64,000 nt of DNA from a virus. Taxonomy: Duplodnaviria; Caudoviricetes. Below the pieces are notes generated by a model. It saw only the letters and a program-made list of their open reading frames with translations, had not been told where the DNA came from and made no database searches. This document shows, one piece after another, positions 30,656 to 63,692 of the stretch. The DNA lies in IMG/VR virus record IMGVR_UViG_2823592041_000002, positions 32,001 through 96,000 of that record, one strand, 5' to 3'. How positions within the stretch are numbered: position 1 is the stretch's first letter; every line of letters begins with the position of its first letter. Both the position numbers and the translations under genes were made by a program.

Positions 30656-32013
30656 TGATTGATTTTAAACTTGACATAGATATTGAATCTAATTTATTAG
30701 AAGGTTTTGATAAATCTTTTGAAGATGTTTTTAATATTCAAAATTTTTCTGTTGAGTTGAACGAAAACCCTAAAAATGATATAGATGAAGTTTTTATGGA
30801 AAATTTTAATTTAAATAAAAACTTTTCTATCAATTTAAGTGAAAATGAAATAAAAGATATAGATTCCATTTTTAAAGAAGAGTTTGCGCCAAATCTTGGA
30901 ATGTCTTTTAATATAGATTTGAACCCTATAAAAAATTCAAATGATTCAGATTTTAGAAATCATTTTAAACTTCTTCAAAACTTTTCTATCAATTTAAGTG
31001 AAAATGAAATAAAAGATATAGATTCCATTTTTAAAGAAGAATTTTATCAACCAATTCCAGAACTTACGGTTTTGGAGAATGATATTATTTTACCTGAAAT
31101 CAAAAAACAAAATGATATTTTTGATATTTGTTTAGATTCAATGGGAAATGTTGATGATTTAATTTTTGAAGATTATTTTAAAGAAGATGTGAATTATGAT
31201 TATGGTATCATAAACAAGTTAAAGAAGGATTTGAATAGTAGGAAAATTTTAACTAGGGAAGAGAGGGAACAAATCCCTGAAAATGAGTCCATCATTTCTT
31301 CCATAGAGCTAGATAAAAAGGAAACGCTTTCCATAGAAGAAGATTTGAGAAAATCTGAAAGTGTGATAAAAGAAAACTCTTTTTATAAAATTGTTGAGAT
31401 TGATCAATCTGAATTAAAAAATACCCCAACCAAAGTTGAAACCAGTGTTGATACTTCTTACAGAGAAGAGGTTGACCAAAAAATAATAGACCTTGAAAGT
31501 AAGTATGAAGACCTTCTACAAAAAACAAAAGATGGGTATGAAGATAAACTTAGTAAAATAGTTGACGATTTCTCAAGTTTTAGAAATCATATTACACAAC
31601 AAGTCACTAGAATGTCTTTTATTGCTTCATCTTCTGCTGGGGGTGGAGCTGTTAATATTTTGGATATGGATGATGTTAATAAAACAAATCTTCAAAATGG
31701 TTACGTTCTATCATATAATAATTTTTCCAAGAAATTTGAATTTATAAATCCAGCAAATATAGGTTCTTCTGCATCTTTTGATAGTATGCAAGCAGACGTT
31801 TTCACAATAACTCAAAATGATTTAGATAACTCTTATATAGATTTGTCTGCACCAGCTGACAGTAATTATTATGAATTGTCTGAATTTCATATTAATGGTA
31901 TTGTCAATGTCCATCAAACAAATTATACTTTTTTATCATCAAATAGAGTGGATATTTCAAATCTAATCTTAGATGTCGGTGATATTATCAGAATAGTTTA
32001 TATAAAAACTTAG
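30655..32013 (+). CDS. Hypothetical virion protein: N-terminal acidic repeats, coiled coil, GGGAVNILDMDDV motif, C-terminal beta domain
   Basis: Repeated NFS(I/V)NL.EN...DID..F.E.F; C-terminal domain resembles those of the next two genes; coupled to gp20 (TAATG). Confidence 0.6.
   Translation: MIDFKLDIDIESNLLEGFDKSFEDVFNIQNFSVELNENPKNDIDEVFMENFNLNKNFSINLSENEIKDIDSIFKEEFAPNLGMSFNIDLNPIKNSNDSDFRNHFKLLQNFSINLSENEIKDIDSIFKEEFYQPIPELTVLENDIILPEIKKQNDIFDICLDSMGNVDDLIFEDYFKEDVNYDYGIINKLKKDLNSRKILTREEREQIPENESIISSIELDKKETLSIEEDLRKSESVIKENSFYKIVEIDQSELKNTPTKVETSVDTSYREEVDQKIIDLESKYEDLLQKTKDGYEDKLSKIVDDFSSFRNHITQQVTRMSFIASSSAGGGAVNILDMDDVNKTNLQNGYVLSYNNFSKKFEFINPANIGSSASFDSMQADVFTITQNDLDNSYIDLSAPADSNYYELSEFHINGIVNVHQTNYTFLSSNRVDISNLILDVGDIIRIVYIKT
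30818..31040 (+). repeat. Exact 64-bp direct repeat (30818-30881 and 30977-31040)
   Basis: AAAACTTTTCTATCAATTTAAGTGAAAATGAAATAAAAGATATAGATTCCATTTTTAAAGAAGA twice, 159 bp apart and in frame. Confidence 0.9.
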
Positions 32014-52321: not shown

Positions 52322-52809
52322 AATTATTTGAAGAACTTGAAGATGAAGTTAAATTTGACGATGAGGATTATTCAAAAGAGAGTTATTGTCCATTTAAGTT
52401 CTTTTTGGGTTCTATAAATATAACCAAAGAGAATGTTTTGTTGGATGATAGTAATGGTAAGATAGAGGAAGCATACAATCCTTTTATTATTAATAAGACT
52501 TTATCATACTTTCCCGATACCATTATGCAGTCCAATACAATGAACCAATTTTTCGATATTGACAAGAAGTTGCAATATGAGTTTTTACTAAATAGTATTA
52601 GAAAGAAAAAAAGATTTAGTAGATGGATTAAGTCAAACATTGAGGAGAATGTTGACACCGTAAAGCAATATTACAAAGTTGGAAACGAAAAGGCTGTTGA
52701 AATATTATCTTTACTTAATGATGAACAAATATCTATAATAAAAAGTGAATTGAGTGAAGGTGGAGTAAGTGGAAGAAGAAACAATAGTACAAGGATTCGT
52801 GGAGATTAA
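52318..52809 (+). CDS. gp62: Clamp loader small subunit gp62
   Basis: YNPFIIN..LS.F.D, LQYEF..N.IRK.KRFS.W and VKQYY motifs. Confidence 0.9.
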   Translation: MKLFEELEDEVKFDDEDYSKESYCPFKFFLGSINITKENVLLDDSNGKIEEAYNPFIINKTLSYFPDTIMQSNTMNQFFDIDKKLQYEFLLNSIRKKKRFSRWIKSNIEENVDTVKQYYKVGNEKAVEILSLLNDEQISIIKSELSEGGVSGRRNNSTRIRGD

Positions 52810-53167
52810 ATTGAGGAAGTCCGAAGATTTTCTGAAGATTAAAGAAACCTTAACAAGAATCGGGATACCTTCTATAAAAGAAAGAAAGTTGTATCAATCT
52901 TGTCATATTTTACATAAAAGAGGTAAATATTATATTGTTCATTTTAAAGAATTATTTAAACTAGACGGAAAAAATACGGAAATTGAAGAAGAAGATATTC
53001 AGAGAAGAAATTTAATTTGTTCCCTCTTAGAAGAGTGGGAGTTGGTTGAATTAGTTGATAAAAATAAAATTGAAGATAAACTTCATATAAAAAAAATAAA
53101 AATAATTCCATTCTCAAAAAAGAGTGAATGGGAACTTATAGCAAAATATAATATTGGTAAATATTGA
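52769..53167 (+). CDS. regA: Translational repressor RegA
   Basis: DFLKIKETLTRIGI, LYQSCHILHKRGKYYIVHFKELF.LDG and W.L..KYNIG. Confidence 0.95.
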   Translation: MEEETIVQGFVEIKLRKSEDFLKIKETLTRIGIPSIKERKLYQSCHILHKRGKYYIVHFKELFKLDGKNTEIEEEDIQRRNLICSLLEEWELVELVDKNKIEDKLHIKKIKIIPFSKKSEWELIAKYNIGKY

Positions 53168-60094: not shown

Positions 60095-60100
60095 CTAAAA

Positions 60101-60139
60101 AAGTATTGACATTGTAGTCAATATTTGGTATTATAAATA
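60101..60139 (+). promoter_or_regulatory. Sigma70 promoter (TTGACA-N17-TATTAT) with overlapping late TATAAATA and a 26-bp inverted repeat over the -35
   Basis: AAGTATTGAC-ATTGTA-GTCAATATTT at 60101-60126. Confidence 0.75.
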
Positions 60140-60177
60140 CTATATGTGAGAATAAAATACTTACGAGTGATAAAACT

Positions 60178-60235
60178 TAGGTTTACGTATAAAAGCTAAA
60201 AGACCTATTAATGTCGAAAGACGGAAGATTAAATT
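60178..60235 (+). promoter_or_regulatory. Structured 5' leader, copy 1 (diverged)
   Basis: TAGGTTT-N16-AGACCTA stem, TTAA, then GTC-GAAA-GAC hairpin before ATG 60236. Confidence 0.6.
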
Positions 60236-60742
60236 ATGAAGAATGTAATTATTTTAGGCGATGTTTGCACGTTTGATATCAATATTGAACATTTGTTTGA
60301 GTTAAACCCTTATGATGAAGATGAAATAGTGAGGCTTCTAGGGTTTCCAGAGGAGTTAATTCGATATTGTTCTGGGTTGATTCCATTACATGTTGTCAAT
60401 GCATTATACTCAATTCCAGATGATCAATATTCATTACAAACAATCGCTGATGAAATGGATTTATCTTACGGCAACATTATTTCAAAAAACATTGGTGATC
60501 TTAGTTATCTCGAATTGGGTAGTTGTGGGTTCAGTTCCAGTAGTTCCAAAAATATTTGGCAGAAATCTAAAATAGACACCAATGGTGTTTATAAAAGCCA
60601 TTGCGGCGATCCAGATTTAGATTACAAAATGAAAATAACCGACACAAACAATAAGTTTGAATTCATTTTATATCCATATTCGATAGTAGGATTAAGAGAT
60701 ATGAACAATCTGTCCGATTATAAGATAGCGAGATTTGATTAA
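60236..60742 (+). CDS. Hypothetical early protein
   Basis: 168-aa ORF with its own promoter and leader; GLIP...G.Y...DPDL...YPY.IV...ARFD. Confidence 0.7.
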   Translation: MKNVIILGDVCTFDINIEHLFELNPYDEDEIVRLLGFPEELIRYCSGLIPLHVVNALYSIPDDQYSLQTIADEMDLSYGNIISKNIGDLSYLELGSCGFSSSSSKNIWQKSKIDTNGVYKSHCGDPDLDYKMKITDTNNKFEFILYPYSIVGLRDMNNLSDYKIARFD

Positions 60743-60762
60743 ATTAAAATAAATTTGAAAAA

Positions 60763-60796
60763 AAGTATTGACAAGTGATTGAATACTTGTTATAAT
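60763..60796 (+). promoter_or_regulatory. Consensus sigma70 promoter TTGACA-N17-TATAAT with a 26-bp inverted repeat over the -35
   Basis: TTGACA at 60768-60773, TATAAT at 60791-60796; AAGTATT-N12-AATACTT at 60763-60788. Confidence 0.85.
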
Positions 60797-60814
60797 AGTA
60801 TATGTAAAAATAAA

Positions 60815-61129
60815 AAAATCTAGGTTTAAGTGTGAAAGCGAAAAAACCTATTAACGTTTAACGCAAAGGATAAAAATTATGGCTAGGCCAAAATCTAAAG
60901 AAACAATGGAAAAATTTACAATGTGTGTGCCGAAAGAAGATCTCAAAAGATATGAAGAGAACGGTGCTAGTATAGGATTGACACGCAATTCATATATCAG
61001 ATTTATGACACAATTAGGAGAAGAAACATACTCTAAAATGAGGAATAAATAGAAAAATTTACAATTGACAAAATCTAGGTTTAAGTGTGAAAGCGAAAAA
61101 ACCTATTAACGTTTAACGCAAAGGATAAA
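60815..61129 (+). repeat. Exact 60-bp direct repeats (60815-60874 and 61070-61129), leader copies 2 and 3
   Basis: AAAATCTAGGTTTAAGTGTGAAAGCGAAAAAACCTATTAACGTTTAACGCAAAGGATAAA twice, 255 bp apart. Confidence 0.95.
60879..61052 (+). CDS. Ribbon-helix-helix (CopG/Arc-like) DNA-binding protein, 57 aa; not in the ORF track
   Basis: MARPKSKETMEKFTMCVPKEDLKRYEENGASIGLTRNSYIRFMTQLGEETYSKMRNK; alternating beta strand KFTMCV-P, helix, G-L-T-R-N-S-Y-I-R turn and helix; AAGGA RBS. Confidence 0.72.
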   Translation: MARPKSKETMEKFTMCVPKEDLKRYEENGASIGLTRNSYIRFMTQLGEETYSKMRNK

Positions 61130-61131
61130 TT

Positions 61132-62256
61132 ATGACGAATGTTAAATTTTTAACTTTTACGGATGCAGAATTTGAATCGTACATTGACGGTCCGTATGTA
61201 AAAAAGCTTTGGGATAGATACACCAGTCTTATGGATTTCAAGGACTGTATTCCCGATTTGGAGGATTCGGAACTTGTAAAGATTTATTGGATGTCTAAGG
61301 ACACAATATTGGAAGATTCCCATCTACATAGTACAGTTTTCAGACAAGCTTGTATTCGAGATGAGGATGTTGCAACCAATGAAAGTAGAGTCGCAACTCT
61401 ACGTGGCTCGTTTATTAGATCTGGATGGAGTCCAAATCCAGAAGAATCTATGCCTATCGTCGCATCCGATGGGCCAGGAACCCCATTAGAGTTTCAAGAG
61501 GGTCGAGGAAGAGTTCAGGCTAATATTGAGGGTGAAACACCTCAAGGTTGGATACCTGTTGCAGAGTTTAGAAAAAATAACCTAATACGAGATTCTCTTA
61601 CCAACAGTTTAAGATATGGTTTTTTAACCAATATAGTTGATAAACCAAAAACTGGTGCAAAGATGGATGACTACGTACCAGCTCTTATGAAAGCAATTAA
61701 AGCTGGTGTCGTGAATGAAAACTTGGAAGATGTGAAAAAATACCTGATAAATGAGTTATTGTTTTCAAAAGTGTTTCCTCACACTGCATCCGCAACCAAA
61801 ACAGCTAAAAAAGCTTTGAAGAGAAAATCTGAGTCTGAGTTCGTTTTAGAAAGGATGGAACTGGATGATGTTAAAGTTTGGGGTTCACGAAACCCTAAAA
61901 TAAAAAATCTATCTGGTAAAGTATTTTACATTCGTTCCAACAGTAGAAAGGCTTTAAATTCTGCCTTGGAAGAAATTTTACATTACTTGCTTAACAATCC
62001 TTATGAACATGTTAATATTGTGTTCTACACAACTGAGATAGTATACTCAAAAGCGAAAGAAGAAGTTCAGAAAGCTCAAAAACGAGTTGATGATTGGTGG
62101 AATAACTTTCATAAAGTTGCTTTTGCGAGTTTCTTTAGTGGTTCTAACCTTGTAGTCATTCCAGAAGCTAGGTACACTATTTTGGGATGTGTTCCTCAAT
62201 TTGTACTTAAACATGATATTAATGGGAACTCATTAGTCCCAATTAAACAGTACTAA
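61132..62256 (+). CDS. ParB/Srx-like N-terminal domain protein
   Basis: Q..IR, L..SF...GW, MPIV and EGRGRVQA (GxxR box), followed by a helical region. Confidence 0.55.
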   Translation: MTNVKFLTFTDAEFESYIDGPYVKKLWDRYTSLMDFKDCIPDLEDSELVKIYWMSKDTILEDSHLHSTVFRQACIRDEDVATNESRVATLRGSFIRSGWSPNPEESMPIVASDGPGTPLEFQEGRGRVQANIEGETPQGWIPVAEFRKNNLIRDSLTNSLRYGFLTNIVDKPKTGAKMDDYVPALMKAIKAGVVNENLEDVKKYLINELLFSKVFPHTASATKTAKKALKRKSESEFVLERMELDDVKVWGSRNPKIKNLSGKVFYIRSNSRKALNSALEEILHYLLNNPYEHVNIVFYTTEIVYSKAKEEVQKAQKRVDDWWNNFHKVAFASFFSGSNLVVIPEARYTILGCVPQFVLKHDINGNSLVPIKQY

Positions 62257-62263
62257 TGCCATT

Positions 62264-62296
62264 GAGAGAGTGATCAACTTGATCACTCTCTCTTTT
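62264..62296 (+). terminator. Rho-independent terminator
   Basis: GAGAGAGTGATCAA-C-TTGATCACTCTCTC-TTTT, a perfect inverted repeat. Confidence 0.85.
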
Positions 62297-62340
62297 ACTA
62301 GCCTTTTAATTAATAGTGTCATTTCTAATAGGCATAATTC

Positions 62341-62393
62341 TTGATATTTCACCCTCAAATATAGTATAATAGAATATAGTGAGAGACTAAATA
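62341..62393 (+). promoter_or_regulatory. Sigma70-type promoter (TTGATA-N18-TATAAT) and late-type CTAAATA
   Basis: TTGATA at 62341, TATAAT at 62365; CTAAATA at 62387-62393. Confidence 0.55.
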
Positions 62394-62411: not shown

Positions 62412-63692
62412 ATGAGTTATTCTATACGAAAATATTTGAAAGAAGATGTCCTTGTTGAAGCAAAAGTAAACAAGAATTTACATCTTGAACACCTTGAAGA
62501 CAATCCACTCAATTTTGGTTATACTGGAATATCTAAAACAATAGATTTCCTAAACGCAACTATTGGTTTATTGTCTGGTTCTGCAAACAAGAGTGTTGAT
62601 GTCACTGTCAAATATGATGGTGCTCCTGCAATATTCTGTGGTACTGACCCAGAGGATGGTAAGTTTTTTGTTGGAACCAAATCAGTATTCTCCAAGAATG
62701 CTAAACTTGTTAAACGGGAGTCCGATTTAGACAAATATGGGTTCTCTGGACAACTCAAAGACAAACTATCCATTGCTCTCAAAGAACTCCCTAAATTGGG
62801 TATTGAAGGGGTCTTACAGGGTGATATGATGTTCACATCTGATGACATCACAACCAAAAAGATAAATGGTGAACCTTACATCACCTTTCAACCAAATACT
62901 ATCATGTATGCTGTTCCTAGCAATTCTGATCTTGCTTCTAAAATGTTGAAGTCTAAAATCGGGATCATCTTTCATACTACATATTCTGGTGATAAACTGG
63001 AAGACATGAAAGCATCTTTTGGTGCTAATGTTTCAAAATTGAACAAAGTCAGCTCAGTTTGGGTTGATGATGCATTTTATAAAGATGTAACTGGATCACT
63101 TTTCTCTGAAAAAGAAACTTCCGATTTAGAGAAAAAGATTGCTAAACTCCAAAGAGTTGGTAATGCTATTAGTAAGAAGTCTATGAATAATATTCTTTCC
63201 GTTCACGATGAATTGAAAACTTCTGAACTTGGTGCTGGATTGAAAACATATTTCAACTCAAATGTTAGAAGAGGTATTTTGCCAAAGTCTGGTGTTACTG
63301 GAGTGAATAACTTCCTTATTCATTTTGGAAATCATTTTGAAGATAAAGTTATCGCAAAAGTAAAACAAGAAAAGACAAAGAATCAGAAGAAGGAAAGAAA
63401 ACAACAACTCCTAAACCTTCTAATCAAGGAAAAAGTTGCACTAGCTAACCTATTAGAATTCATGTTATTGACGATAGATTTGAAGAACTCTGTGATAAGA
63501 AAATTAGAAACAGGAGTTAATTCTAAAATGGAAACTTTTGTAGTTGATAATAAAGGTATCCGAGTTACAAAACCAGAAGGATTTGTTGCTATTGATAAAC
63601 TATCTGGTGGTGCTGTAAAGTTCGTTGACAGACTTGAATTCTCCCAATTAAATTTCACAGTTGACAAGAACTGGTCTAAAGTCTCATCGTAG
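62412..63692 (+). CDS. Conserved marine T4-like protein (DUF6267-like) with ligase/nucleotidyltransferase motifs
   Basis: KNLHLEHLED, motif I TVKYDG, motif III-like VLQGD, motif IV PEGFV and motif V VKFVDR. Confidence 0.65.
   Translation: MSYSIRKYLKEDVLVEAKVNKNLHLEHLEDNPLNFGYTGISKTIDFLNATIGLLSGSANKSVDVTVKYDGAPAIFCGTDPEDGKFFVGTKSVFSKNAKLVKRESDLDKYGFSGQLKDKLSIALKELPKLGIEGVLQGDMMFTSDDITTKKINGEPYITFQPNTIMYAVPSNSDLASKMLKSKIGIIFHTTYSGDKLEDMKASFGANVSKLNKVSSVWVDDAFYKDVTGSLFSEKETSDLEKKIAKLQRVGNAISKKSMNNILSVHDELKTSELGAGLKTYFNSNVRRGILPKSGVTGVNNFLIHFGNHFEDKVIAKVKQEKTKNQKKERKQQLLNLLIKEKVALANLLEFMLLTIDLKNSVIRKLETGVNSKMETFVVDNKGIRVTKPEGFVAIDKLSGGAVKFVDRLEFSQLNFTVDKNWSKVSS

Follow-up and report, generated by a model that had tools for sequence, protein, structure and literature searches.

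The window analysed here is a stretch of 64,000 nucleotides (nt), positions 32,001 to 96,000 of the IMG/VR virus record IMGVR_UViG_2823592041_000002, a 136.9-kb record of a Caudoviricetes virus with 33% G+C that is 76% complete and whose closest named relatives at the DNA level are Methylophilales phage Melnitz, Pelagibacter phage HTVC008M, and T4-like cyanophages. Between genes for a DnaB-like helicase and an Rv2179c-like exonuclease on the 5′ side and a DUF6267 gene on the 3′ side, the window carries an accessory early-gene cassette encoding a 168-amino-acid (aa) protein, a 57-aa probable ribbon-helix-helix (RHH) protein, and a 374-aa ParB-like protein (Table 1). A first-pass annotation had placed each of these three genes behind a copy of one leader and proposed that they form a self-regulating circuit; the leader copies were confirmed, and the fate of the circuit is discussed below. 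The cassette as such is of an already known kind, that of the PeSL (promoter-stem-loop) cassettes of T4-type phages. New are a conserved hairpin linked to the ParB-like genes of marine phages and its exchange, in a sister cassette, along with the large protein.

The cassette and its genes

Two predicted sigma-70 promoters, P1 before the 168-aa gene and P2 before the RHH gene, agree with the consensus at 11 of 12 positions (60106-60134) and at 12 of 12 (60768-60796), and both are accompanied by an A6-7 tract. Each carries over its -35 box the inverted repeat already noticed in the first pass, AAGTATTGAC-N6-GTCAATACTT, with one mismatch at P1 and two at P2. No further match to it occurs in the window, where 0.01 matches are expected by chance. 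The P2 repeat reaches only 8/10 and is overlapped by other repeats; an alternative repeat, ACAAGT-N8-ACTTGT, lies within the P2 spacer. Folded as RNA, the repeats give -9.6 kcal/mol (P1) and -7.5 kcal/mol (P2). Across the whole genome, a scan returned about 25 early promoters of this kind; the leaders that follow them are almost always 15-30 nt long, versus 80-100 nt for P1 and P2. A T4-late-type TATAAATA box at 60132-60139 overlaps the -10 of P1 and is absent from P2, so the 168-aa gene might also be expressed late; the same box is present in L151, a related cassette described below.

The window contains three instances of the leader core pattern, where 100 shuffles gave none, and the entire record contains no more than these three. 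Copy 1 shares 62% identity with copy 2, and copies 2 and 3 correspond to identical 60-nt direct repeats. No separate promoter precedes copy 3, which is therefore contained in the P2 transcript, and the strong terminator that had been thought to close the unit is indeed present. Recombination between the 60-nt repeats would delete the RHH gene, which, bracketed in this way, is apparently a recent passenger. No such joint was seen in the contigs examined, these being contig-level data in which rare variants would be lost.

Table 1. Features of the cassette and of its right edge, in window positions
Feature	Position	Strand	Remarks
Accessory early-gene cassette	60096-62355	+	~2.26 kb; insertion relative to the closest relatives
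P1, predicted sigma-70 promoter	60101-60134	+	-35 60106-60111, -10 60129-60134, TG-extended; inverted repeat 60101-60126 over -35
Leader copy 1	60159-60231	+	degenerate first hairpin (HP1) 60178-60207; small second hairpin (HP2) 60213-60222
168-aa gene	60236-60742	+	lineage-restricted; no family assignment
P2, predicted sigma-70 promoter	60763-60796	+	12/12, TG before -10; inverted repeat 60763-60788
Leader copy 2	60802-60874	+	two-tier HP1 60821-60850, HP2 60855-60863, then Shine-Dalgarno AAGGA
Identical 60-nt direct repeats	60815-60874 and 61070-61129	+	flank the RHH gene
57-aa probable RHH protein	60879-61052	+	between the 60-nt repeats
Leader copy 3	61057-61129	+	HP1 61076-61105, HP2 61110-61118
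374-aa ParB/Srx-fold protein	61132-62256	+	ParB-like N-terminal domain ~44-170, helix-turn-helix (HTH)-like helical domain 175-237, alpha/beta C-terminal domain 242-370
Predicted intrinsic terminator	62264-62298	+	closes the cassette; hairpin 62264-62292, 13 bp, -21.1 kcal/mol, z = -6.9
Predicted DUF6267 gene promoter	62341-62370	+	right edge of the variable site; present also in cassette-free relatives

The proposal that this stretch is a discrete, self-contained early module is supported, at the level of sequence, by insertion/deletion polymorphism. In the closest relatives, L068 and L069 (identity 97-99% in the helicase, 93-94% in the exonuclease, and 96-97% in DUF6267), only 78 nt separate the exonuclease open reading frame (ORF) from the DUF6267 start, and they contain the DUF6267 promoter alone. 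Other cargo occupies the same site in L067, L070, and L147. In the marine sample X4, contigs matching the flanks leave the window sequence exactly at 60095 and 62355 and continue into L067-type cargo, the cassette itself being carried by low-depth contigs. An empty site and alternative cargo among close relatives are the behaviour described for PeSL cassettes, and the contig comparison shows the exonuclease-DUF6267 interval of this marine T4-like myophage to have the makeup of a hyperplastic site.

PeSL cassettes consist of an A-rich tract, a strong sigma-70 early promoter, a stem-loop, a Shine-Dalgarno sequence, and an ATG, and they shuffle orphan genes (ORFans) in hyperplastic regions, with repeats flanking single small genes (PMC2839356, PMC4122927). 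A subclass with the stem-loop overlapping the -35 has been described (PMC2839356). The comparison with these cassettes, drawn in the first pass, is apt in view of the promoter scores, the repeat stem-loops, and the hyperplastic site (PMC2839356, PMC4122927): the window shares with them the promoter with an A-rich tract, the stem-loop over the -35 or spacer, the kind of site, and ORFans that differ between close relatives. It departs from them in two respects: its stem-loops are weak (-7.5 to -9.6 kcal/mol) and rich in A and T rather than G-run/C-run terminators, and it carries a leader some 80-100 nt long whose hairpin is specific to a gene family, a feature outside the PeSL definition.

A ParB/Srx fold is supported for the 374-aa protein, in agreement with its first description as ParB-like. 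Both the N-terminal fold and the Gly/Arg motif (GxxR type) are present; in an alignment of 28 sequences of the ParB-like family (A1), G124 and R127 of the GRGR motif show no variation, and the conservation of R125 is at least 90%. Relatives match ParB-like PHROGs at 1e-5 to 1e-7, and Foldseek against the PDB returned weak ParB rows (E about 0.04). The Pfam profile ParB_N (PF02195) did not match the window protein at E up to 1 and reached E = 0.033 in one of the 28 relatives. Homologues were found by an exhaustive HMMER search; a word-indexed protein search returned nothing, and a related-locus search seeded with the protein gave no match.

KorB (8qa8), PadC (6ryk), Noc, and HerB/YfjB (bioRxiv 10.64898/2026.07.07.736705) resemble the window protein in having a ParB/Srx N-terminal domain followed by a helical DNA-binding-like domain. 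HerB is further alike in being expressed immediately on entry of its mobile element, as is predicted for the window protein, and KorB regulates its own operon, a likeness proposed here as well. The window protein differs from these non-partition ParB proteins in lacking a Pfam ParB_N match, in its other alpha/beta C-terminal domain, in the lack of a ParA, and in that several of its homologues adjoin DNA methyltransferase genes. Its likeness to the ParB CTPase clamps is one of motif resemblance only. The adjoining genes, of the Dam or N6/N4 type, follow the ParB-like homologue. Such adjacency is often seen, both in this family and in the phrog_15918 family treated below (L004:4840-5691, L015:3610-4488, L017:2395-3264, L155:1-224), and recalls the ParB-methylase fusions seen in phages. 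In Prochlorococcus phage P-SSM3, the ParB-like homologue adjoins the major head protein gene.

The 57-aa protein is probably an RHH protein, as first proposed, on four weak but concordant lines: a strand-helix-helix sequence pattern with AF2 helices; Atlas neighbours in the CopG, NikA, and RHH_1 clusters; a weak NCBIfam VapB match (E = 0.02; 15 bits, where the cut-off is 60); and fold matches in which RHH proteins are enriched. There was no Pfam match and no significant match to an RHH profile. It thus resembles known RHH regulators (Arc/Mnt, CopG, NikA, and the RHH antitoxins) in size, in pattern, and in its nearest language-model and fold neighbours, and differs from them in the missing profile match, in having no conserved partner gene, and in its single relative. 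This relative (L022, 86% identity) is followed by its own promoter and an unrelated 63-aa gene. The 168-aa protein had no Pfam, PHROG, or PADLOC match, and its homologues (77-91% identity) are confined to close relatives. In L147 a homologue (91%) stands alone before DUF6267, without leader, RHH gene, or ParB-like gene.

A hairpin linked to the ParB-like genes

The folding energies of the single leaders are unexceptional (z = -0.1 to -1.0), and the evidence for a leader structure thus comes from the comparison with other phages and not from thermodynamics. A two-tier hairpin precedes nearly every member of the ParB-like family (loci L004-L063), in more than 20 lineages of marine T4-like phages. 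It has an outer stem of 6-9 bp, internal loops of 3-5 nt rich in A and C, and a GC-N3-5-GC tip; its end lies 23-40 nt from the start codon, and a second small hairpin usually comes next. The sequence of the outer stem is entirely variable, and the tip and the A/C-rich loops are kept despite the unrelated stems.

The pairing was assessed in a 22-row alignment (A5) that includes leader copy 2, is anchored only on the fixed flanks around the GC...GC core, and is gapless outside the loop. In it 91.4% of the cells pair; shuffles give 58.5% and slid partners 30-39%. The covariation score is 0.842 versus 0.199, with none of 500 shuffles reaching 0.842. Double-sided changes occur at all eight of the eight outer pairs. 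A hairpin descriptor matched 26 of 31 regions upstream of ParB-like genes, compared with 11 of 135 upstream of other ORFs at the same loci.

A covariance model (R2), which replaced an earlier one (R1) that was too narrow, one stem family dominating it, recovered the hairpins of L050 and L057, neither of them in its seed. In phage contigs of 236 kb and 256 kb, its sole match sits just 5′ of the ParB-like gene. In the window, copy 2 is the top match (19 bits, E = 0.03), and scores are confined to the two identical copies. The model misses the hairpins of P-SSM3 and L052 at E up to 1. Rfam gave no relevant match for the leader (E up to 10 for the window, up to 1 for the loci of 12 relatives), and a promoter-plus-spacer pattern had no match in the viral contigs searched.

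Several features favour an RNA element over a DNA palindrome. On the sense strand, the hairpins contain 14 G-U pairs versus 2 C-A pairs; on one and the same strand, both internal loops abound in A and C and have little G; R2 scores the sense strand 7-10 bits above the antisense; and the arms lie 12 to 19 nt apart, depending on the hairpin. Judged from such comparisons, the leader is an old, gene-linked element of conserved structure, which makes the RNA-level half of the control suggested in the first pass plausible.

The most telling comparison is offered by a sister cassette (L149-L151). In L151, P1 is 97% and P2 96% identical to the window, inverted repeats included, and the 168-aa gene of the three loci is 86% identical. 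Their contigs of 2.1-2.7 kb carry no RHH gene, and the large gene encodes an unrelated 375-aa protein, phrog_15918, with a weak ParB-like signal only. In both leaders the flanks are conserved, and between them stands a different hairpin, whose stem reads CGTAATG and whose A-rich loop measures 12 nt. The type of leader thus goes with the large protein rather than with the promoters or the 168-aa gene, since hairpin and large protein are exchanged together in the sister cassette. In four cultured phages, the leaders of the phrog_15918 family are highly varied. A homologue of the 375-aa protein in Prochlorococcus phage Syn1 (L153) lies directly 3′ of regA and 5′ of hsp20.

Other arrangements accompany the ParB-like gene in further relatives. 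In cyanophages (L021, L024, L029, L047-L054), its early promoter is embedded in an intrinsic terminator, a compact composite whose hairpin loop contains the -35 TTGAC and whose T-run makes up the spacer. In L055 (1248-1472), two structured RNAs stand back to back before the gene: a manA RNA (RF01745, 177 bits) follows four tRNA genes and ends 2 nt before the ParB-linked hairpin (1443-1472).

Possible readings of the leader

The reading preferred here, on which belief and doubt are evenly balanced, is that of a leader-based regulatory unit read by the large protein, in which the promoter repeats are PeSL stem-loops. The cassette is built of PeSL-like units, made up of an A-rich tract, a sigma-70 promoter close to the consensus with a stem-loop over its -35 or spacer, a leader, and a Shine-Dalgarno sequence. 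Its core cargo is the ParB/Srx-fold protein, whose family-wide structured 5′ untranslated region (5′UTR) in this phage also precedes the 168-aa and probable RHH genes; the extra copies would have arisen by recombination or gene conversion. In the mRNA the hairpin could serve as an operator controlling translation or mRNA stability; the large protein of the cassette would recognise it and thereby exert feedback on its own synthesis and on the genes sharing the leader. The inverted repeats of the promoters would attenuate read-through and supply homology for recombination, and would not be a dedicated RHH operator. The large protein is proposed as the reader mainly because of the exchange in L149-L151.

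Phage translational operators, such as the T4 gp43 hairpin operator, the gp32 leader, and the RegA targets, are small 5′UTR elements near the ribosome-binding site, and a 5′UTR element inherited with its gene is the usual signature of autogenous control. The window leader is likewise a small structured element near the ribosome-binding site that is inherited with a gene. It differs in that the putative regulator has a ParB/Srx fold and is not a polymerase, a single-stranded-DNA-binding protein, or RegA, and in that the element is common to three genes.

A number of observations weigh against such a reading. ParB/Srx proteins are known to bind DNA or nucleotides and are not known to bind RNA. 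Gene conversion alone could explain the matching leaders of the sister cassette. The hairpins were first located by a pairing-based finder, and some selection bias remains despite the controls. The window hairpin deviates from the consensus at its tip, with GU in place of GC; leader copy 1 is missed by R2 at E up to 1; and a 25-bit match, treated as chance, lies inside an 89-aa ORF of another phage (G003). The RHH relative of L022 has a small leader hairpin and no ParB-like gene on its 542-nt contig, and a search of sequencing runs listed no RNA run as containing the stretch.

A broader form of this proposal, which is tentative and leans towards the unlikely, makes this ParB/Srx-fold family of marine T4-like phages a structure-specific RNA-binding autoregulator. 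Each variant would read its own two-tier 5′UTR hairpin, protein and hairpin would move together as a matched specificity pair, and copying of the hairpin would bring further genes into the regulon.

Among the alternatives, the circuit of the first-pass annotation is judged unlikely. In it a dimer of the 57-aa protein would bind the 26-nt repeats covering the P1 and P2 -35 boxes and repress its own gene, the 168-aa gene, and the ParB-like gene. The repeat is indeed common to exactly these two promoters, with no other match in the window, the protein is probably of the RHH type with its gene under P2, and autorepression is common among RHH proteins. However, the link between protein and operator found no support in the relatives. 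With their repeats, P1 and P2 keep 96-97% identity in L149-L151, on whose 2.1-2.7-kb contigs no RHH gene was found. In L005 the promoter 5′ of a ParB-like gene of 26% identity matches P2 at 26 of 29 positions from -35 to -10, and none of the genes called within 4 kb on either side has an RHH annotation, these genes not having been searched for RHH. The RHH relative of L022 stands in a different context, a PeSL subclass has its stem-loop over the -35, and the P2 repeat is imperfect and overlapped by others. Co-occurrence of the genes in relatives had been named as a check on the circuit, and their independent occurrence as evidence against it. Both the RHH and the 168-aa gene were found elsewhere without the ParB-like gene, the latter also beside another large gene in L149-L151. 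From these loci, together with the L005 promoter and the lone 168-aa homologue of L147, the three genes are separable, which largely speaks against a three-gene circuit; of the combined DNA- and RNA-level control once envisaged, the DNA-level part thus lacks comparative support.

Similarly improbable is a passive or general role of the hairpin, as a 5′-end stabiliser, an RNase processing site, or a ribosome standby site or enhancer, read by host factors or by some general factor of the phage, RegA for instance, and repeated through PeSL homogenisation. In the cyanophage relatives, the hairpin begins within a few nt of the predicted 5′ end of the transcript; this phage encodes RegA; and PeSL recombination is documented, with the identity of copies 2 and 3 suggesting recent conversion. 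A general element would, however, hardly be expected to occur, in large contigs, essentially with the ParB-like gene alone, to keep its tip and A/C-rich loops across lineages with unrelated stems, or to be swapped with the large protein while the promoters and the 168-aa gene stayed.

More doubtful is the view that the leader palindrome is a parS- or OB-like DNA loading site from which the ParB-fold protein represses adjacent promoters in the manner of KorB. The ParB/KorB fold with its HTH-like middle domain would suit such a role, parS usually adjoins parB, and the site type changes along with the large protein and is present in several copies in the cassette. It accords poorly with the large excess of G-U over C-A pairs, with the one-stranded composition of the loops, so that there is no true palindrome, with the variable arm gap beside a constrained distance to the start codon, and with the higher score of the sense strand.

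A toxin-antitoxin-like or partition/carrier-state module, also raised in the first pass, is very improbable: RHH proteins are common among antitoxins, a weak VapB match exists, and ParB proteins are known from partition, but no known toxin family and no PADLOC match were found, the 136.9-kb, 76%-complete record has no match to a ParA-type ATPase (AAA_31), the RHH gene is dispensable in the sister cassette and occurs without these neighbours, the cassette is absent from the closest relatives, and homologues occur in lytic cyanomyophages such as P-SSM3, so that the toxin-antitoxin and partition readings were rejected.

If confirmed, the leader-based unit would define a new candidate among cis-regulatory RNA motifs, one that covaries, is linked to a gene, and has no Rfam entry. 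The ParB-fold family to which it is tied is uncharacterised and, together with its hairpin, widespread in ocean myophages, P-SSM3 included. The cassette would likewise document PeSL-type shuffling in the uncultured pelagiphage/Melnitz-like branch of marine T4-like phages, with the cassette and the other-cargo forms in one natural sample. The natural exchange of hairpin and large protein offers a direct and cheap test of the proposed reader. RNA recognition, if true, would give the ParB fold an activity new to it and would extend its biology to post-transcriptional control, and a positive result would show accessory genes entering an existing control circuit.

Neighbouring genes

The DUF6267 gene (window 62412-63692; L066-L146) is matched by more than 600 viral contigs. 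It forms a conserved edge, and the content of the adjoining site varies even among relatives whose DUF6267 is 96-97% identical. Elsewhere in the window, a gene at 52799-53158 encodes the RegA translational repressor (PF01818, E = 7e-44), a general RNA-binding candidate in this phage.

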